Part shown: positions 22,896-33,088 of the stretch, piece after piece
Numbering within the stretch: position 1 is the stretch's first letter
How the letters are laid out: each line of letters starts with the position of its first letter
NCBI GenBank assembly: GCA_018580065.1
Contig: GCA_018580065.1_4845.1
Length of the DNA stretch: 46,716 nt
Origin: a phage
Reading direction: 5' to 3' (one strand)
Translations under genes and position numbers: made by a program
The notes under the pieces: model-generated
Told to the model about the DNA's origin: nothing
Seen by the model: the letters and a program-made list of their open reading frames with translations, nothing else
The model's database searches: none

Positions 22896-23085
22896 GATTA
22901 ATCCACCATGCGGCAATGGCTGAGAAAATCCACAATCCGATAACAAGTCTGAAAACCTGCCAGTTTAGAATGTCATCAATGCTTGGTGCTTCCCATCTAA
23001 TCAACCAGATAAGCGGAAAAGCAATCGCTAGTGCAATGGTGTACTTAATACCAATAAACAGAAAATCTCTCACAAAATCTCTCAT
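22882..23085 (-). CDS. membrane protein (two TM)
   Basis: 67 aa with two hydrophobic segments. Confidence 0.6.
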   Translation of the reverse strand: MRDFVRDFLFIGIKYTIALAIAFPLIWLIRWEAPSIDDILNWQVFRLVIGLWIFSAIAAWWINHVQG

Positions 23086-24028: not shown

Positions 24029-24054
24029 GCCCTCGATTGAGGGCTTTATTTTTA
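24027..24054. terminator. rho-independent terminator between convergent genes
   Basis: Stem AAGCCCTC/GAGGGCTT, loop GATT, T-rich tail. Confidence 0.8.
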
Positions 24055-25476
24055 TCGCCTGCGCCGGATTAGCATCCCGCTACCGCGCTGTACGATGTGG
24101 TCATTGAGTGCGTAGCGAACCGCATCCCAATAGTGGTTGTATGCATCAACAATATCAGTCAGCACATTCCCAGTCAGCTTATCAACCTTATAGCTGTACA
24201 TTGCAGCCTCATTCTGCATTTCCTTGCATCGCTCGTGGATGACAATGCTGTCACATCCGCGCAGCCATGTTACGCCATCTTCAACGCTACCCGGCCATTT
24301 TGTGCATGGATGAATATCAAATCCAGAGCGCTTAATATGGCTAATGGTTTCGGGTCGAGCACAGTCGGCATACCATCTTGCGCGTTTAGCCATCGGGAAT
24401 GATTGCTCCATCGCGGCTGGTGTATCGGTAATCTCAAGGCCAACCTTGCCATACTCGCGATTAATATAAATGTTGCGTCGTCCACCTGGTAATTCTTCAA
24501 TGTAAACCTCAACCATTGCGGTAGGATCGGTGGAAAACCCGAAGTCCATCCCGAAATATGGACCATGCCATTCAGGCTTAACCTCAAAGTTATCAATGCG
24601 CCATTTTCCGCCGAATACCTGCTCGTCGCTGCGTTTGTTGAATGCTCCCATCCAAATCCAGCGATAACGGTCGTAATCAGTTCGCTTCATTTGCTCCATA
24701 GCGGACGGCAGGGGAGTGTCCCAGAACCACGGGTTGTCTGAATAGTTACATTCGATAATCAGAATTTCATCGTTTTCGAATATGCCATCAACCATCTGCG
24801 AGTGATAAGGCGCAATCCAGTTTTTCCACGTCGGGTCTGTTTCCTTGTTTGGGTTGAATGAGCACCACAACTCGGAATTGGCGGCACGGATGGTAGGCAC
24901 AAGAATATCCCAGCTTGTCTGGCTGACGTTCTCTGCTTCCTCTACCCAACCAACGGTAATGCCAGCGAAGCCCTTAACGGTTGTCTGATTGCGATACAGC
25001 CCCTTGAAGCGAAACTTCGCTTTGGTCTTCTTGTGTGTTATCTCGTTGTTGATAACGCGAAACTCTGCCGATTCACCCTTCCGGGCTATCTCATCAACAA
25101 GTTCCTGATAGCTTGAATCCTCAATGGATTGCTGAATCTCACGAAAGCAAGCAAAGCGGTCAGGTCGAAACCTTGCGCGCTCGGTAAGGATAGTGATAAT
25201 TGTTCTCGTCTTCCCTGACCCACGGCCACCATAGACGAACTTGAATCGTTTGGGGTAAAGCAGTCGCTCCAGTTTTGCGGGAATCAGGTGGTCGGCATGA
25301 GTGGTTGCATTGGTCACGTCATCAACGCCAGTAGCGGTCATCCTTAACCGCTTGATGACGTTTTTCTGCATGTCGCAGATACCAAAGATGGCAGACTCTG
25401 CAACATCTGTCATTGCATCATCAATCTGCGCTTCCAGCTTTTCTATTGCCAGTGCAGAGAGGCGTTTACGAGCCAT
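24052..25476 (-). CDS. terL: terminase large subunit
   Basis: 474 aa from MARKRLSAL. Walker A YGGRGSGKT. C-terminal nuclease-like region. Follows the small subunit. Confidence 0.9.
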   Translation of the reverse strand: MARKRLSALAIEKLEAQIDDAMTDVAESAIFGICDMQKNVIKRLRMTATGVDDVTNATTHADHLIPAKLERLLYPKRFKFVYGGRGSGKTRTIITILTERARFRPDRFACFREIQQSIEDSSYQELVDEIARKGESAEFRVINNEITHKKTKAKFRFKGLYRNQTTVKGFAGITVGWVEEAENVSQTSWDILVPTIRAANSELWCSFNPNKETDPTWKNWIAPYHSQMVDGIFENDEILIIECNYSDNPWFWDTPLPSAMEQMKRTDYDRYRWIWMGAFNKRSDEQVFGGKWRIDNFEVKPEWHGPYFGMDFGFSTDPTAMVEVYIEELPGGRRNIYINREYGKVGLEITDTPAAMEQSFPMAKRARWYADCARPETISHIKRSGFDIHPCTKWPGSVEDGVTWLRGCDSIVIHERCKEMQNEAAMYSYKVDKLTGNVLTDIVDAYNHYWDAVRYALNDHIVQRGSGMLIRRRR

Positions 25477-25609
25477 TGGTTGGCTCCTGAAGAATGTCGG
25501 CCACCTCCTCATCACTCATTGACTCATCAAACACAACGTCTCGCTCATCTCCGCTGCGCAGAAGAATCACCTCATCACATCTTTGTTTATAATAAACTGA
25601 ATCATCCAT
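25466..25609 (-). CDS. hypothetical acidic 47-aa protein between terS and terL
   Basis: The ATG overlaps the terS stop codon region (ATG 25609..25607, stop 25604..25602). The ORF ends 11 nt inside terL. Confidence 0.45.
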   Translation of the reverse strand: MDDSVYYKQRCDEVILLRSGDERDVVFDESMSDEEVADILQEPTNGS

Positions 25610-26021
25610 TCTGCTGCTCCAGTAGTTTCTCCAGCCGCTCAAGTCTCGCGGCGAGTTCAGTAACTTCGGCAATATCCAGCCCTGTCCTGATAACCTCGGC
25701 AAATGTCTTACCAATGTCCACAGGTATAACACCAGCGGCTATACCTCGAATGACGGCGTCAATCTTCTGCACCGGAGTTCCGTCATCAGGGAAGTCCACC
25801 TCAAACACTGGGGCAACTGGTTTAGGTAGCGGACTGAATCGAACGATAAGCTCCTTCATCATTGCGGTGTCACGCTCAATCATTGCCATCTCAATGATGG
25901 TGTCATAGAGCTTTTCTTCGCTAAATCCCTTTCTCTCAAGAGCTTCAACAAGCAGCTTACGCTTATCTTTCCCGCGTTTGTTTTGTGGTTGATTTTCTTT
26001 ACTGAATAGCTTTTTAGCCAT
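25602..26021 (-). CDS. terS: terminase small subunit (putative)
   Basis: 139 aa. Basic N-terminus (KENQPQNKRGKDKRK), C-terminal coiled coil. Directly upstream of terL. Confidence 0.7.
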   Translation of the reverse strand: MAKKLFSKENQPQNKRGKDKRKLLVEALERKGFSEEKLYDTIIEMAMIERDTAMMKELIVRFSPLPKPVAPVFEVDFPDDGTPVQKIDAVIRGIAAGVIPVDIGKTFAEVIRTGLDIAEVTELAARLERLEKLLEQQNG

Positions 26022-27590: not shown

Positions 27591-27671
27591 TTAAGCCTCA
27601 TAAGAGTTAATGATTGCCTTGATGCGACGACGATACCACTGCATGATGTGTTCGTTATGCCAGTTACTCAT
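27591..27671 (-). CDS. 26-aa peptide
   Basis: Hand translation MSNWHNEHIMQWYRRRIKAIINSYEA. GGGAG RBS. Confidence 0.3.
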   Translation of the reverse strand: MSNWHNEHIMQWYRRRIKAIINSYEA

Positions 27672-27673
27672 TG

Positions 27674-27769
27674 TTACTCCCTATACCCTGATTTAGAAAC
27701 TGCCACTGCGATAATGATGAACGCCACGATAACCAGACTGGCGATAAGCTCGAATGATGCGCCTGTCAT
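27674..27769 (-). CDS. 31-aa membrane peptide
   Basis: Hand translation MTGASFELIASLVIVAFIIIAVAVSKSGYRE. ATGA coupling with the upstream gene. Confidence 0.35.
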   Translation of the reverse strand: MTGASFELIASLVIVAFIIIAVAVSKSGYRE

Positions 27770-27912
27770 TTACCTAACCCATACGCCGAGATTAAAGCCT
27801 GCATTGCTGCGTTCCAGAATGCTTCTGCAGGAATACTGTTATTTGTGCGCTCAACTGCAATGCGCGCCATAGCCTGTGCATCTTTAAATTCTTCGCGGTC
27901 TTTAATTTTCAT
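27766..27912 (-). CDS. hypothetical 48-aa protein, first gene of the leftward early operon
   Basis: Hand translation MKIKDREEFKDAQAMARIAVERTNNSIPAEAFW... GAAGGT RBS. Confidence 0.45.
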   Translation of the reverse strand: MKIKDREEFKDAQAMARIAVERTNNSIPAEAFWNAAMQALISAYGLGK

Positions 27913-27942
27913 ACCTTCACCCTCGTTTGTTTCGATGAGTTC

Positions 27943-27971
27943 AATCTACATCAGTTGTGATTCTACGTCAA
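27943..27971 (-). promoter_or_regulatory. sigma70-like promoter TTGACG-17-TAGATT (minus strand) with two motif copies
   Basis: Minus strand: TTGACGTAGAATCACAACTGATGTAGATT. Motif copies at 27960-27970 and 27943-27953. Confidence 0.6.
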
Positions 27972-28137
27972 CATGCAGAGAAAGAAAAAGCACTACCAAA
28001 TGTTAGTTAATGCTAGCCAACATATATAGTTACATATATTACTAATAGTAACCTTTGTTTATTACCTCTATAAAGTATATTAAGATCTTCTTTATATTTA
28101 TTGTAGATATTAATACCTTACGCTACAGAAACACGAA

Positions 28138-28164
28138 AACCAGCAGTTAAGCTGGTTATTTTTT
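28138..28164 (+). terminator. terminator-like hairpin at the edge of the putative origin
   Basis: Stem AACCAGC/GCTGGTT, loop AGTTAA, then A plus T6. No upstream CDS on the plus strand. Confidence 0.5.
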
Positions 28165-28185
28165 AGTGGTTTTTAGTGTTTTTTG

Positions 28186-28545
28186 GCTTCCCGCGCTTCC
28201 CTGAATTCCCTGGAAGCATTTTTTTCTTTGTTTTCAGTAGCTTCTGAGTGTTTTTTGTATCGCTTCCCGCCTCCCAAGAAAATAATTTTTGAATTTTAAA
28301 ACTCTCAATTTTTTTCGAAAATCTTCCCGGGAAGCGGGAAGTTGGGAAGCGACGACTTAAATAATTGATTTTCCTGTATTTTCGCTTCCCAAGCTGTTTT
28401 GGTTTTTTGGAAGCAAAGCTATTGAAAATAAAAGAAAAATTACCCCTCTGGTAAGCGTTATACTCCTGTTGGAGTGTGCTGTCAACCAGCCGCACGGAAC
28501 AAAGATCATCCCCGTGTAAATGTGTTTGACTAGCTTCCTTTTTCC
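28186..28545. repeat. iteron array GCTTCCC/GGGAAGC (putative replication origin)
   Basis: 7-mer or close variants at 28186, 28195, 28206, 28212(inv), 28262, 28269, 28322, 28329(inv), 28336(inv), 28344(inv), 28384, 28409(inv) and 28533. Interspersed T-tracts. AT-rich block 27990-28135 alongside. Directly upstream of the replication genes. Confidence 0.6.
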
Positions 28546-28554
28546 CTTTATTCT
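28526..28554 (+). promoter_or_regulatory. candidate promoter TTGACT-17-TATTCT for the replication operon
   Basis: TTGACT 28526-28531, TATTCT 28549-28554, upstream of 28582. Confidence 0.4.
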
Positions 28555-28581
28555 TTTTTTTATCAAACAAGAAGTGGAGAA

Positions 28582-28809
28582 ATGGCGATGAGCAAAGAAT
28601 ACCGATTTGGCAGTGCGATTGGCGAGGTCTGGGATTTTGTGCGTGATATGTTGGTTGGTGATCGTAAGGAGTTTAAATTTGATGAGTTTACCGCTAATGA
28701 AGGATTAAGGGGATTCAGAGTGAACCTTCATAAGGTTGCAGTGCGGAACGGATGGATGTTTAAAACGCGAGCTAAGGAGGGTGGCTTGTGGGTAAAACGG
28801 ATTAAGTGA
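28582..28809 (+). CDS. hypothetical small protein, paralog of the C-terminus of the next gene
   Basis: 75 aa (alternative ATG at 28588). Shares the pattern F.FD[DE]F...LR..L.[KR]V....F......V[KR][RV].K with 28821-29243. Confidence 0.65.
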   Translation: MAMSKEYRFGSAIGEVWDFVRDMLVGDRKEFKFDEFTANEGLRGFRVNLHKVAVRNGWMFKTRAKEGGLWVKRIK

Positions 28810-28820
28810 GGTGTTTGGAT

Positions 28821-29243
28821 ATGAAAAGGTACTACATTGAGGCAATTGGGGCTGATGGTAAAAAGTTATATGCCAGCGGTAGATGTGGTTTTCTGCATGA
28901 TTTTACCTATGCGAAGTTTTTCAAAACAATAGAGGAGGCTGAGGGGTATATGGCGTGGCGGAAGCCTCATCTCCCATGTGAAATAAAATGCAAGGAGCAA
29001 AGGGTAAAAAAACGGTCTGCGTCTCAGGTGGAACAAAAAACGACAATGGAGGGAGAAGCTAGAAACTTCGTCTACCGCCTTGGTTTGGATAAGGGAAAGC
29101 ATTTTGTGTTTGATGATTTTAAGTTGATAAAGAGCATTGATCAGTTGAGAACTTCCCTTGACAGGGTGGGTAAGAAGCTGCAAAAAAAATTCAGTGTCAA
29201 TATGGTTGCGCGTAATACCGCTTATGTGGTGAGGGTTAAATGA
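28821..29243 (+). CDS. hypothetical protein with C-terminal domain paralogous to 28582-28809
   Basis: 140 aa from MKRYYIEAIG. GAGGTG RBS. Confidence 0.65.
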   Translation: MKRYYIEAIGADGKKLYASGRCGFLHDFTYAKFFKTIEEAEGYMAWRKPHLPCEIKCKEQRVKKRSASQVEQKTTMEGEARNFVYRLGLDKGKHFVFDDFKLIKSIDQLRTSLDRVGKKLQKKFSVNMVARNTAYVVRVK

Positions 29244-31573
29244 TGATTGGTTATGAAGATTACCGCAAATGTGGCTTCCCTATTATTGGAATCCATGCGA
29301 TGGATATCGACCGAAATTGCACATGCGGTGATCCAGAGTGCAATGCTGCCGGTAAGCATCCGGTTATGAGCAACTGGCAGCTTGGAGTTATATGGGCTGA
29401 TGACCAGATTGAAAATATGGCTGAATATGGTCAGTTGCAGTCATTCGGTGTCCTTGTGAATGGTTATCTGGTCGTTGATATTGACCCACGCAACGGAGGT
29501 AATGATGGATATGAATCGCTTTGTGATGCCTTAGACGTAGAGCTTGCTGACGAAGCTGGTTTTACGGTCAAGACTGGTGGTGGTGGTCGCCACATCTATT
29601 ACAAACTTCCTGAAGGAATAAAGCTGCGCTCTCATGACAGAAGATTTAATGGTATTGACTTTAAATCATCTGGTTTTGTTGTTGGATGTGGTTCTTTTCA
29701 TAAAACTGGAAACTTTTATGAGGCCGAGCATGGATCCCCTTCAGAGATAACTGAATGTCCATCTGAACTTATTGAGCTTTTGTTGCGTCCTGAGAGAACG
29801 GAAGACGAGGTTTTCACGCTTGATAGTAAAAATTACAGCATTGCCGAAATGGAGGATATGCTCAAATACATCAAAGATGGTGATGAGTATGACCCATGGC
29901 TTCATGTAGGTATGGCTATCCACGAAGCTACAGAAGGCAATGGTTTTGAGCTTTGGGATAGATGGTCATCGCAGTTCAGCAAATACAGAGCTGAAGAGAT
30001 GGACGCAAAATGGCATTCCTTTGGAAAGGACGGCGTTAGCGAAAAGATAACAGAAGCAACGCTGGTTTATCTCGCGCAAGAGGGGGGGTGGGTAAGGCAA
30101 GTAACTTTTGAGGCTACGCCAGAGGAAATTGAGAAACTTGAGTCTTTCGAACGAGAGATGGCAATGGGTGTTGGTGAATGCCCTGTAGAGTACAAAAGTG
30201 TTGATGTCCGTTATCCGCCTGGATTTGTTGGTCGCCTTGCGGCGTGGATTAATAAGAACTGTGCAGAGAAGCGAGAGAATATTGCAGCACTTGCCGCATT
30301 GCATGCCGCATCCATGATTTGCGGTGCGTCATCTGATATTTACCTTACAAACAGGAAGGCTTTACCAAACCTTTTTGCTGTTGGTATCGCTGGTTCAGGT
30401 TCAGGTAAGGGTGATGTCCTTGCTGCGCTACAAAAGATAATTGATTGCTCAGGATTGAGTAAGACAGTTGCCGGTAAGATACGCTCAGAGCGTGCGATAT
30501 ATGAAGGTCTTTGCGCTAACCAGATGTTTAATATCATCATGGATGAGATTGGGATAAAACTTGGGAGTGTTGTTGGTCAGAAAGTAAGCGAGTACAACAT
30601 GGCAACCGCTGGTGCGATCATGGAGGCTTACACGTCAGAAGTTCTTTATTGTGACCAGCGGGTTACTGAGGATTTCATTAAGTCTTTTGAAAAAAGAAAG
30701 GCTATGCTGTTGATGGCTATTGAGGAAAATGAAATACAGGCAGACCCCGTTGACATTAAGTGTCAGTTTGATGATGTGATAAACAGAATTGACGGAGCTA
30801 TAAGGAATCCATTTTTTTCAATCTTTGGTGTATCTACTGATGATCAGTTTAAGCGCCTTATTACAGAAGAAAACATTAAGTCAGGCCTTATGGGTCGCGC
30901 AATGATTATGCAGGAGTTACAGGAGATTGCTGATGAAAACGAAAACGTAAACTACTGTGATCTACCTATGGATATGCAACTGACCATAAAAACAATAATA
31001 AATGGCGGAACGGCTGGGCACAAAAACTGGACAGACTCAATAATCAGTCAAAAAGAAAGACGGATTATAAAAGCCACGCCTGAAGTTTCTCAGCTCGCCA
31101 AGGAGTTCTTCTCATGGATTAAAACCGTTGCAAGAAAGCATGTAGAAAATGGTACTGGTTATCACCCATTGATAAACAGATGCGCCGTGAAGGTGGCAAA
31201 GATTGCTGGAATTCTCGCGTGCGATACTGGCGTCATAACCATGGAGCACTTGAGATATGCGGTAGCATTAACAATTAAATCAACAAGCGATCTGATGATG
31301 CGTGCCGACAGTATCGCCGGAGCGAAGTCTAAAGCTATGGAAGAGAGAATTGAAGGCATTTTCTCCATGGTTAAAGAATATGTGAAGCGAGGAATGACCA
31401 AAACAGCAATGGTTAGAGGGGTGGCAAAAGAAGGTGGTTATAAACGTGCTGATGTCGAGAGGTGCGTAGAGAAGTTGTTATCAGATGGTGTTATTTGCAT
31501 TGATGAAAATGCAAAAAGAACATCTCACAACGTAATAATTTACAAATTAACAAATGATGAGGTTGAGATATGA
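29240..31573 (+). CDS. bifunctional primase-polymerase (Prim-Pol) / PriCT-2 / P-loop helicase-like replication protein
   Basis: N-terminal C.CGDPEC..AGKHP...VVDIDPRNGG...GGGRHIYY Prim-Pol motifs. DEYDPWLHVGMAIH PriCT-2-like segment. Walker A GIAGSGSGKG. Confidence 0.85.
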   Translation: MMIGYEDYRKCGFPIIGIHAMDIDRNCTCGDPECNAAGKHPVMSNWQLGVIWADDQIENMAEYGQLQSFGVLVNGYLVVDIDPRNGGNDGYESLCDALDVELADEAGFTVKTGGGGRHIYYKLPEGIKLRSHDRRFNGIDFKSSGFVVGCGSFHKTGNFYEAEHGSPSEITECPSELIELLLRPERTEDEVFTLDSKNYSIAEMEDMLKYIKDGDEYDPWLHVGMAIHEATEGNGFELWDRWSSQFSKYRAEEMDAKWHSFGKDGVSEKITEATLVYLAQEGGWVRQVTFEATPEEIEKLESFEREMAMGVGECPVEYKSVDVRYPPGFVGRLAAWINKNCAEKRENIAALAALHAASMICGASSDIYLTNRKALPNLFAVGIAGSGSGKGDVLAALQKIIDCSGLSKTVAGKIRSERAIYEGLCANQMFNIIMDEIGIKLGSVVGQKVSEYNMATAGAIMEAYTSEVLYCDQRVTEDFIKSFEKRKAMLLMAIEENEIQADPVDIKCQFDDVINRIDGAIRNPFFSIFGVSTDDQFKRLITEENIKSGLMGRAMIMQELQEIADENENVNYCDLPMDMQLTIKTIINGGTAGHKNWTDSIISQKERRIIKATPEVSQLAKEFFSWIKTVARKHVENGTGYHPLINRCAVKVAKIAGILACDTGVITMEHLRYAVALTIKSTSDLMMRADSIAGAKSKAMEERIEGIFSMVKEYVKRGMTKTAMVRGVAKEGGYKRADVERCVEKLLSDGVICIDENAKRTSHNVIIYKLTNDEVEI

Positions 31574-31992
31574 TTAATTACAAGTATCTGGTGATGAGAG
31601 GTTTGTATGACTATTTTGAGTCAGAAAATCCTGAGCGCGCACATGATAACGCAATATCCATGATGACAGGAAAACACCTGATGGAAGTTTACTACTGGAA
31701 AATGCCAGTATTCCGCTGCAATATGGGTATCTGCATTGATGATGACGTACTGTTTTGTCGAATACAATATGAAAACAATGTAGGCATAGTGACAGCATCG
31801 TACAGGGATGTCGCAAGAAAATCCGGGAAATGGCATCCAAGCGAAGTATTTGCTGGTGACGCACTATTTAATTTCTGCAAGGCGTTTGGTGTTTTGTATG
31901 AGGATGTAAGCAAAGAGTATAGCGGAAGGCGTGAGAAAGATAGCTTGAGTTCCAAAGGCGTGACTAACTACAAGGATAAAAACCATGTGTAA
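31570..31992 (+). CDS. hypothetical protein
   Basis: 140-aa ORF, ATGA-coupled to the primase gene. Confidence 0.65.
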   Translation: MINYKYLVMRGLYDYFESENPERAHDNAISMMTGKHLMEVYYWKMPVFRCNMGICIDDDVLFCRIQYENNVGIVTASYRDVARKSGKWHPSEVFAGDALFNFCKAFGVLYEDVSKEYSGRREKDSLSSKGVTNYKDKNHV

Positions 31993-32188
31993 CACAATTA
32001 GAACAATATCAGGCGAACTTTGTCGCTCAGAAGGTTCATGGCATTTCAGGCCGCATGGTTATTCGACATGGTTTTTCTGGAGCGGGATTAACAAAGTATG
32101 GATTCGCTCTAATTACCACGTGCTTGATGATTACTGGCATAGATTTTGTGTTGGTTATGTTGATATTTCAAAATTGATGATTAAGTGA
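31985..32188 (+). CDS. hypothetical Trp-rich protein
   Basis: 67-aa ORF. Confidence 0.5.
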   Translation: MCNTIRTISGELCRSEGSWHFRPHGYSTWFFWSGINKVWIRSNYHVLDDYWHRFCVGYVDISKLMIK

Positions 32189-32198
32189 GGGCAAGGAA

Positions 32199-32450
32199 AT
32201 GGATGTGAAAGATAAGGTTTTGTACGTGATGAGAAAGAGAAAATCCATTGAGGAGGAGACCCTTGGGATTTGTCGAAAGTTCTCCGTTGCCCCGTGGAGT
32301 TTACGTCTATCGATGGTGAATGAATTTCCTGATGATGAATGGACGGCGGCAAAGTTACGGAAGGTTCTGGTTTCTCTTTGTAAGGAGAGCCTTGTATCAA
32401 AGGATTTAAATAACAGTCGCATTGGTAATTCAGTTTGGATTCTGGAGTAA
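32199..32450 (+). CDS. hypothetical protein, possible winged helix
   Basis: 83 aa. AAKLRKVLVSLCKESLV segment similar in style to 842-1060. Confidence 0.55.
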   Translation: MDVKDKVLYVMRKRKSIEEETLGICRKFSVAPWSLRLSMVNEFPDDEWTAAKLRKVLVSLCKESLVSKDLNNSRIGNSVWILE

Positions 32451-32455
32451 AACTG

Positions 32456-32761
32456 ATGGCTAACTTGCAACTTGCCGTCAAAGGCGAATACTTCGACGCC
32501 ATGATTCGTGGAGAGAAAACGGAAGAGTATCGCCTTTTTAATGACTACTGGAAGAAACGCCTTATTAACTTTAAAGATAGCGGACAGATTGGAAGGAAGT
32601 ACGAAAGGTTAATTATCACAAAAGGATATCCAAAGAAGGACGATAAATCCAGGCGCATTGACATCCCATATAATGGATGGACGGTTAAAACCATCACGCA
32701 CCTGCACTTCGGTCCTGACCCAGTGGAAGTGTTCGCAATAAAAGTTAACATCAAAGCATAA
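32456..32761 (+). CDS. ASCH domain protein
   Basis: LQLAVKGEYFDAMIRGEKTEEYR... and ITKGY pattern typical of the ASC-1 homology domain. 101 aa. Confidence 0.6.
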   Translation: MANLQLAVKGEYFDAMIRGEKTEEYRLFNDYWKKRLINFKDSGQIGRKYERLIITKGYPKKDDKSRRIDIPYNGWTVKTITHLHFGPDPVEVFAIKVNIKA

Positions 32762-32765
32762 CAAA

Positions 32766-32790
32766 AAGCCCGCAAACGCGGGATTTATTA
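32766..32790. terminator. rho-independent terminator between convergent genes
   Basis: Stem CCCGC/GCGGG, loop AAAC, T-rich tail. Confidence 0.7.
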
Positions 32791-33030
32791 TTTAACAATC
32801 CATTTTGTAACGGCTGGCCTTAAATCTTCCTTTCTGAAAACGCCACCAGTAAGTCTCTCGGCATCAATTGCTGCTGTAGCGCTAATTCTTCCTCTTGACA
32901 CCCACTGATTGACAGCCTGTTTTGACACACCAAGAAACCTTGCCAGTTGTGATTGCCCTCCAACATAATCAATCAGCTCTGACAGCTTCGTCTGTTCCAT
33001 TTCTCTTATCTGTTCTGCGATGCTTTTCAT
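32788..33030 (-). CDS. Cro/YdaS-like HTH transcriptional regulator
   Basis: 80 aa from MKSIAEQ. GGQSQLARFLGVSKQAVNQWVSRGRIS HTH and ...TGGVFRKEDLRP resemble the YdaS/Cro family. Confidence 0.75.
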   Translation of the reverse strand: MKSIAEQIREMEQTKLSELIDYVGGQSQLARFLGVSKQAVNQWVSRGRISATAAIDAERLTGGVFRKEDLRPAVTKWIVK

Positions 33031-33059
33031 GTGTTTACCTCTGCTATCTGTATGCAGCA

Positions 33060-33088
33060 ATAATGAACTCAAAAAAAATTTTCGTCAA
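33060..33088 (-). promoter_or_regulatory. promoter TTGACG-17-CATTAT for the Cro-like gene
   Basis: Minus strand: TTGACG (33088..33083), 17-nt A/T spacer, CATTAT (33065..33060). Confidence 0.5.

Follow-up and report, generated by a model that had tools for sequence, protein, structure and literature searches.

What is the function of the dense cluster of short repeats at 28186-28545, and which protein recognizes it? We addressed this question for a stretch of 46,716 bp (hereafter, the window), a siphophage genome of ~46.7 kb whose relatives include Shigella phage Sf11 (Cedarrivervirus), Escherichia phage Sa179lw and Klebsiella phage YX3973. An earlier, sequence-only reading had described the cluster as an iteron origin located upstream of the replication operon, and could not attribute the repeats to any initiator. 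No account of an origin in this group of phages (Sf11, Sa179lw, Cedarrivervirus) turned up in the literature searched or in the records that were fetched. From the analyses below, we consider it likely that the array is the replication origin of the phage and belongs to the origin type on which self-loading helicase initiators act. As initiator, the Prim-Pol/DUF3987 protein whose gene starts ~0.7 kb from the array is the most likely candidate, acting via its C-terminal winged helix.

Anatomy of the repeat array

We counted 13 copies of GCTTCCC/GGGAAGC with at most one mismatch in the array, against 0.79 expected from the rest of the window, a number that agrees with the roughly 13 copies in ~360 bp claimed before. 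Any other 360-bp stretch of the window holds at most five such copies. The exact heptamer occurs nine times in the 46,716-bp window; six of these nine lie within 28186-28390, where ~0.02 would be expected per 360 bp, and the other three are singletons at 22988, 29274 and 37649. The copies with at most one mismatch start at 28186, 28195, 28262, 28269, 28322, 28384 and 28533 on the plus strand, and at 28211, 28329, 28336, 28344, 28408 and 28450 on the minus strand.

These iterons are arranged around an AT-rich centre of 47 bp (28276-28322; 85% AT), which contains the second least stable 40-mer of the entire 46.7-kb window. The plus-strand iterons at 28262 and 28269 (left core iterons, 28262-28275; GCTTCCC and GCCTCCC) are directed at this centre and are opposed, across it, by the minus-strand iterons at 28329, 28336 and 28344. 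The right core block (28322-28350) consists of a plus-strand TCTTCCC, palindromic with the GGGAAGC that follows it, and then of GGGAAGT and GGGAAGC on the minus strand. The palindrome CTTCCCGGGAAG at 28323-28334 and the three GGGAAG units at 28329, 28336 and 28344 are thus present as they had first been reported. We also observed that the right core block pairs with 28260-28283 in two inverted repeats (I2 and I6), and that phage L005 carries GCTTCCCGCTTCCC at the position of the left core iterons. Judged from this layout, the core origin is probably 28262-28350, with 28276-28322 as the proposed DNA-unwinding element.

Outside the core, the left outer iterons (28186-28217) comprise GCTTCCC at 28186 and 28195 on the plus strand and GGAAGC at 28212 on the minus strand. 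The right outer iterons (28384-28456) comprise GCTTCCC at 28384 (plus), GGAAGC at 28409 (minus) and a degenerate GGTAAGC at 28450 (minus); in this block an 11-nt inverted repeat without mismatches (I14) is made up of TTGGGAAGCGA and TCGCTTCCCAA. The T-tracts said to separate the copies were found as T5-T8 runs at 28159, 28170, 28179, 28219, 28251, 28286, 28309, 28403, 28539 and 28554. The tandem repeats said to precede the array were likewise recovered: TTTTTAGTG repeats span 28159-28187 (repeat family D1), and the plus-strand T-tract units TTTTTTAGTGG, TTTTTAGTG and TTTTTTGG precede the first iteron at 28159-28185 with a spacing of ~10 bp, which is likely to make this segment bent DNA. Comparable runs of degenerate iterons, with an 11-bp period, occur in YX3973 and Sa179lw. 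No match to the DnaA box TTATCCACA with at most one mismatch was found between 28130 and 28580. Window-wide, near matches to this box at the same threshold are enriched (25 versus 11.9 expected; 0 of 100 shuffles reached 25), with none of them inside the array.

Iteron classes among related phages

Loci with homologous primases were taken from IMG/VR, from GenBank phages and from assemblies encoding primase homologues. Short bidirectional repeat arrays were present at every locus examined except that of Proteus RS51pmB, where no array was seen in the two short intergenic stretches inspected. The repeats could be divided into five classes. Class A, (C/G)GCTTCCC(G), comprises the window, L005, ECO95, Sf11/L006/L017, L025 and L028. 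Class B, CCTAAATGCCA, is found in YX3973, and class C, CTATTTGCCA, in Sa179lw and L020, while L023 has a B/C mix, CCTAWWTGMC. Class D, CTATTTC(C/A)CGT with the motif CTATTTCCCGT, is found in gmqsjt-1 (L001) and ECO111, and class E, GACTTTAGA and its variants, in the Klebsiella-phage group, L027, Yersinia P400 and L029. When the five class motifs were tabulated against 18 arrays, the cross-table was block-diagonal, and the classes do not mix.

Within class A, the backbone of the array is not conserved. The arrays of the window and of the Sf11-type phages are ~50-58% identical and effectively unalignable, and exact GCTTCCC is found 5-6 times in the Sf11-type arrays, eight times in that of L025 and four times in that of L028. 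Because the motif persists in diverged DNA and switches between close relatives on the same hosts, the sequence comparison points to a phage-encoded, sequence-specific binding protein behind the iterons and not to a host factor.

We observed a common plan in the arrays of Sf11, L025, L028, Sa179lw and L023: at least two iterons, a spacer of ~45-65 bp with an AT-rich centre, and at least two inverted iterons. Two phages whose primases are only ~33% identical also have repeats beside the gene. Vibrio phage pYD21-A has TTATGATCAC-type repeats around an AT-rich centre, upstream of a small gene and the primase gene, and Brucella phage Tb has 5-6 TGGGATCT repeats upstream of its primase gene.

The sequence-only reading had taken the AT-rich block at 27990-28135 as the AT-rich element of the origin. 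That block does have an AT content of 73%, and the window's least stable 40-mer lies in it (at 28076). Its sequence, however, is 91-96% identical across phages that have different iteron types and unalignable adjacent arrays, and the AT-rich element is more likely to be 28276-28322. Since the upstream block is conserved across iteron classes, borders the leftward early promoter and has a hairpin between it and the array, we read it as probably a promoter or UP/regulatory region and not an unwinding element.

The proposed position of the origin also needs qualification. While the comparison supports an iteron origin by the replication operon, the location upstream of the operon is not fixed, because relatives carry the array downstream of the primase/p127 genes. 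The Cro-primase-p127 module has the opposite orientation to that in the window in the Klebsiella-phage group, in Yersinia P400 and in several relatives from metagenomes. In these, terminator-like hairpins flank the array, which is found downstream of primase/p127 and still borders the early-promoter block. The inversion was seen in L009-L018, L022, L027 and L029, compared with 28582-33072 of the window.

Several additional features of the related arrays were recorded. Homopolymer runs (C8-C12 and G6-G8) occur in many of them, often as an inverted C-run/G-run pair around the AT-rich centre, just inside the core iterons (L025:3520-3580; L028:3510-3570; L018:5895-5955; L010:5895-5950; L002:5360-5375 in Sf11; L001:5360-5415 in gmqsjt-1; L022:6930-6990 in P400). 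The array of the window itself has no C or G runs of that kind. At L030:6700-7230, next to a primase with 58% identity, two repeat families, CTGTAAA/TTTACAG and CGTTAGAAG, share one intergenic region, and the L009-type arrays have a second repeat, CCGAAAG, besides the iterons. Beside some arrays there are stand-alone open reading frames (ORFs) whose end resembles the primase winged helix (L016:5810-6170, plus strand, with ...RRAVEEVLKKMINDGRIEQDREARGKSNRSIIYK; L009:5739-6311, minus strand). To go by this resemblance, they may encode a second, competing or auxiliary iteron-binding protein.

Iteron class follows the winged helix of the primase

The protein encoded at 29240-31573 (plus strand; 777 aa) has Prim-Pol, PriCT-2 and DUF3987 ATPase domains according to Pfam, matches phrog_3022 ('DNA primase'), and ends in a winged helix. 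A helicase activity is assumed from its domain family. The winged-helix domain, which we propose as the iteron reader, occupies approximately aa 700-777 (31337-31570, plus strand), with the recognition helix YKRADVER and the wing AKRTSHNVIIYKL. An AlphaFold2 model of aa 663-777, made from 96 aligned sequences, had a mean predicted local distance difference test (pLDDT) score of 85.5 and showed the order helix-helix-helix-strand-wing-strand. The alignment for this prediction was built from a search for full-length homologues; a word-index search with the C-terminal 104 aa gave three close fragments only. The top PDB matches of the model in Foldseek were winged-helix regulators, among them MarR, ArsR/SmtB and PadR (probability ~0.9-1.0, E 0.01-0.1).

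The primase is the sole protein that adjoins an iteron array in all the relatives examined. Differences between the primases of different classes are concentrated in two segments, aa 1-275 and 700-777. Classes B, C and D cannot be told apart by the N-terminal variants, but can be by the C-terminal ones. At the DNA level the pattern is mosaic: identity reaches 93-100% in the helicase core (30100-31300), and both the array and the winged-helix/p140 block (31300-31900) have diverged.

Each class has its own signature in the start of the recognition helix and the tip of the wing: YKR(A/S)DVER and RTSHNV in class A, YKRADVER and RTSNKA in class D, YKR(D/E)DVKR and RTSNAV in classes B/C, and K(R/Q)AD(S/A)ER and RTSNRA in class E. 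The primases of L025 and L028 are 70% identical to that of the window outside the winged helix, keep the class A signature and have GCTTCCC iterons. Those of L001, L007 and L008 are ~94% identical outside the winged helix, have altered helix or wing residues, and go with iterons of classes D, B and C, respectively. Iteron class follows the winged-helix signature, not overall relatedness. This covariation provides the repeats with a candidate initiator, which the sequence-only reading had lacked, in the C-terminal winged helix of the Prim-Pol/helicase and not in the small proteins; that the winged helix reads the iterons is, in our judgement, rather probable.

A finer correspondence can be sketched only tentatively, and we regard it as doubtful. 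In such a modular code, the helix sequence RADVER would go with a CCCG half-site (classes A and D) and R(D/E)DVKR with GCCA (B and C), the wing RTSH would go with GCTT (A) and RTSN with CTAWW(T/G) (B-E), winged-helix cassettes would be exchanged together with the arrays, and the homopolymer runs would be an extra origin element. If this were true, the exchange of cassette and array among primases that are ~94% identical would create non-cross-reacting replicons, which could matter in co-infection, and the C8-C12/G6-G8 runs could represent an additional element of the origin, not described so far, such as a site of Prim-Pol priming or a structure-forming site.

Some observations weigh against the assignment of origin and initiator made here. 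The winged helices of L007 (class B) and L020 (class C) are identical, and the iterons of the two differ at two central bases, so either the domain tolerates this difference or there is another contributor. The covariation was traced through about a dozen lineages, and physical linkage could account for part of it, because in the Klebsiella-type arrangement the 3′ end of the primase gene, p127 and the array directly follow one another. What the fold matched were generic winged helices, and the P4 alpha domain (1KA8) was not among the matches listed; a sequence search of solved structures gave no significant hit with either the whole primase or its C-terminal domain. A search of a plasmid collection found none that carries this primase, and hence no natural case of the module replicating alone. 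The array, which is always beside the early-promoter block, may have a regulatory role. Finally, whereas the repeat anatomy, the excess of copies, the conservation of the motif, the fold and the covariation come directly from the analyses, binding, melting, helicase loading and priming are inferred.

Proposed mode of initiation and comparison with known systems

We propose that the 777-aa primase would use its C-terminal winged helix to bind the iterons, which are 7-9 bp long and read (C/G)GCTTCCC(G). The opposed iterons flanking the 47-bp centre would set two protein assemblies face to face, and the AT-rich centre at 28276-28322 would melt. The ATPase/helicase rings could then load at the melted centre, and the Prim-Pol domain would prime. 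The outer iterons and the phased T-tracts probably aid assembly and the bending of DNA, and an iteron-like site in the promoter of the operon (28533-28538) may permit autoregulation.

The closest parallel is found in the pathogenicity islands of Staphylococcus aureus (SaPIs). Their origins have 6-12 penta- or hexanucleotide iterons and an AT-rich centre with at least two opposed iterons per side; the iterons are read by the C-terminal winged helix of a self-loading helicase, SaPI5 fuses primase and helicase, and each element has its own Rep-ori specificity (PMC9371898). By analogy, this description appears to fit the phage array point for point, as short clustered iterons (5-8 bp in the SaPIs), an AT-rich centre, at least two opposed iterons per side and an adjacent helicase-type gene with a winged helix (as in the SaPI Rep/PriRep) are all present here. 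There are also differences. In the window the ATPase is of the Pfam DUF3987 family and the primase is a Prim-Pol with PriCT-2; helicase activity has been reported for a DUF927 protein of a Staphylococcus genomic island (PMC5862659). The origin of the window lies upstream of the gene, at the distance given above, whereas that of the SaPIs is immediately downstream; in the Klebsiella-type relatives it is downstream. Moreover, the system, known here from sequence alone, is that of a lytic-type siphophage with an enterobacterial host, not of a satellite.

The alpha protein of P4 combines a primase, a helicase and a C-terminal winged-helix origin-binding domain in one polypeptide and binds short repeats in both orientations, and the phage system, as proposed, would resemble it in each of these respects. 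Alpha's primase and helicase domains come from families different from those of the window primase. P4 requires two iteron clusters, ori and crr, whereas here we found a single array, all other GCTTCCC copies being singletons. The winged helix of alpha is 1KA8, cited in PMC2777425. In ORF904 of pRN1, the order is AEP (archaeo-eukaryotic primase)-helicase-winged helix; origin recognition has been proposed for its winged helix, and neither iterons nor a cognate winged-helix site were found (PMC2777425). For proteins that combine AEP, PriCT, a DUF3987/DUF927 ATPase and a winged helix, Kazlauskas et al. predicted that the winged helix recognizes the origin (PMC5862659). ORF904 and the window primase share the N-terminal Prim-Pol, the central ATPase/helicase, the C-terminal winged helix and an origin region beside the gene. 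In the phages, unlike in pRN1, the iterons are explicit and vary together with the winged helix.

The classical iterons of Rep_3-type plasmids (pSC101, R6K, RK2, F) and of lambda measure 17-22 bp, are for the most part direct repeats with helical phasing, serve as binding sites for dimer/monomer Rep proteins or for lambda O, and require host DnaA or DnaB loading. The likeness to the phage array lies in repeated initiator sites beside an AT-rich unwinding element and in possible autoregulation via a site in the rep promoter. The phage repeats, however, are 7-9 bp long and in both orientations, the array has no DnaA box, and a Pfam scan of eight neighbouring proteins showed no Rep_3 or O-like domain.

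If correct, this assignment supplies a candidate origin and a candidate initiator domain for the annotation of the Sf11/Sa179lw/YX3973/Klebsiella-Yersinia siphophages with phrog_3022 primases. It also suggests a role for the C-terminal winged helix of Prim-Pol/DUF3987 proteins, hitherto merely predicted to recognize origins. Several iteron classes on near-identical primases would provide a compact system for the study of specificity shifts in winged-helix initiators and for the engineering of orthogonal phage replicons. The general understanding of origins is unchanged; this origin type is already known, and the natural series of specificity switches is the main interest.

Promoters and hairpin beside the array

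The left side of the region is occupied by the leftward early promoter (27943-27971, minus strand; TTGACG-17-TAGATT), which adjoins the origin and lies outside the type-specific module. Its -35 region, TTGACGTAGA, was found again beside the arrays of distant relatives. The strength of the non-coding conservation in 27990-28135 suggests a dense promoter/regulatory region of the leftward early operon. The cumulative GC skew of the window has its minimum near 28000, which is uninformative because it coincides with the switch of gene strand.

Between this block and the array there is a hairpin (28138-28157, minus strand; -10.8 kcal/mol, z = -1.9) whose seven-pair stem, AACCAGC/GCTGGTT, has a T-rich tail on either strand. 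The stem is kept in 10 loci, and the hairpin in all close relatives; its tail on the minus strand, TTTTCGTGTTTC, never varies, and that on the plus strand does. The hairpin probably works as a terminator, keeping the early promoter insulated from the array. Its reading as a conserved terminator of the minus strand in particular was set aside, since the uneven conservation of the tails may reflect no more than the junction of the conserved left block with the variable array. No minus-strand gene ends at this hairpin, which may shield the early promoter from transcription initiated in the array.

On the right side, the replication operon has a promoter at 28526-28554 (plus strand; TTGACT-17-TATTCT), with an iteron-like GCTTCC in its spacer (28533-28538). 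We compared this site across classes (window 28526-28554; L001:5600-5635; L021:3300-3335). The spacer element changes with the iteron class within the conserved TTGACT...TATTCT frame, being AGCTTCC in class A and GTATTTTCC in class D, where it resembles the iteron of the type-D phages themselves. Such a pattern suggests autoregulation by the initiator.

Alternative explanations for the repeats

The array could consist mainly of transcriptional operators for the divergent early promoters, bound by a phage protein (possibly the primase winged helix), with no replication start. The location of the array between the leftward (27971-27943) and rightward (28526-28554) promoters, the class-dependent element in the rightward spacer and the proximity of the early-promoter block in all relatives are in agreement with this. 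However, most copies are 150-350 bp from either promoter, and the hairpin stands between them and the leftward one. Inverted iterons around a very unstable AT-rich centre make the layout of an origin and not of operators. The Cro-like regulator is constant across iteron types, with no GCTTCCC in the region upstream of its gene, and even where the genome contexts are unrelated, the array accompanies the primase family. We consider this explanation unlikely; the regulatory features behind it are also compatible with the origin reading, as initiators are often autoregulating.

Less probable still is that one or both of the small proteins encoded at 28582-28809 and 28821-29243 bind the repeats as initiator or loader, the primase being recruited later. 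Their genes are the first of the operon and directly beside the array, their function is unassigned by Pfam/PHROG, and the family is fast-evolving. Yet these proteins do not follow the repeats. The 75-aa protein (28582-28809), tried as a determinant and rejected, is 85% identical in the window and the class-D phages such as gmqsjt-1, where the iterons differ, and only 47% identical to its homologue in Sf11, which shares the iterons of the window. The Sf11 protein is in turn closer to that of Sa179lw (class C; 84.5% identity) than to that of L025 (class A; 51%). The second protein is missing from the Sf11-type phages, and no homologue of either was found at the class-E loci examined (Klebsiella-type, Yersinia and others; 3-4 kb on each side of the primase gene), where arrays are present. 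On this comparison, the small proteins appear not to be the specificity determinants.

We attach very little probability to the repeats being a pac site bound by the small terminase subunit (TerS) encoded ~2.2 kb to the left. Short binding sites in repeated copies do make up some pac sites, the terminase genes lie close by (24052-26021), and the GenBank record of Sf11 begins near this region. Nevertheless, that boundary is arbitrary and cuts through the small-protein gene, and where the primase module is inverted, the array remains beside the module, at its downstream end. The TerS-like protein (25602-26021) was also rejected as a determinant: it is 98% identical in gmqsjt-1, which has class D iterons, and 44% identical in the class-A phage Sf11, so that the repeats do not follow it.

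Least credible of all is that the region is a gene, either the 135-codon minus-strand ORF that exists at 28163-28570 or a non-coding RNA that ends at the terminator-like hairpin (28138-28157) just downstream on that strand, with a weak minus-strand promoter match at 28308-28279; as the sequence-only reading had stated, the ORF is very probably an artefact, being unconserved, disrupted by one-base insertions or deletions relative to the close relatives L005 and ECO95 (in ECO95 the frame is split into 44- and 73-aa pieces) and free of Pfam hits, its lysine-rich low-complexity product follows from the T-tracts of the opposite strand, the same-class arrays elsewhere are effectively unalignable as described above, and an Rfam scan of 27600-28900 with E up to 1 returned two implausible sub-threshold hits, a microRNA and a small nucleolar RNA (the best, the microRNA, at 24.6 bits versus a gathering threshold of 86).

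Neighbouring genes

From left to right, the region contains the small early genes of the minus strand, the AT-rich block, the hairpin, the array, the rightward promoter, the 75-aa and 140-aa ORFs, the primase gene and p140. The 75-aa protein belongs to phrog_28700 and, like the 140-aa protein (28821-29243), is encoded on the plus strand. The C-terminal half of the latter is weakly like the 75-aa protein (BLASTP E = 5e-4 over 39 aa), and a 32% identity over 71 aa was also seen with a relative's second protein. The earlier description of the two as paralogues is weakly supported by these matches.

The Cro-like regulator (32788-33072) was rejected as a determinant of iteron class; it is 98-99% identical across classes A and D. 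The same holds for p140 (31570-31992, plus strand; phrog_33005), whose gene overlaps the primase stop codon and which gave no Pfam hit: it is near-identical in L001 (class D) and L007 (class B), and is missing from L030, Brucella phage Tb and Vibrio phage pYD21-A. Elsewhere p140 accompanies the primase down to ~30-36% identity (L027; Proteus RS51pmB over 61 aa), and is in this sense a conserved partner of the primase. The interval 31900-32750, between p140 and the Cro-like gene, holds variable accessory genes that are present in the Sf11-type phages and replaced or absent in other close relatives (identity ~0%).

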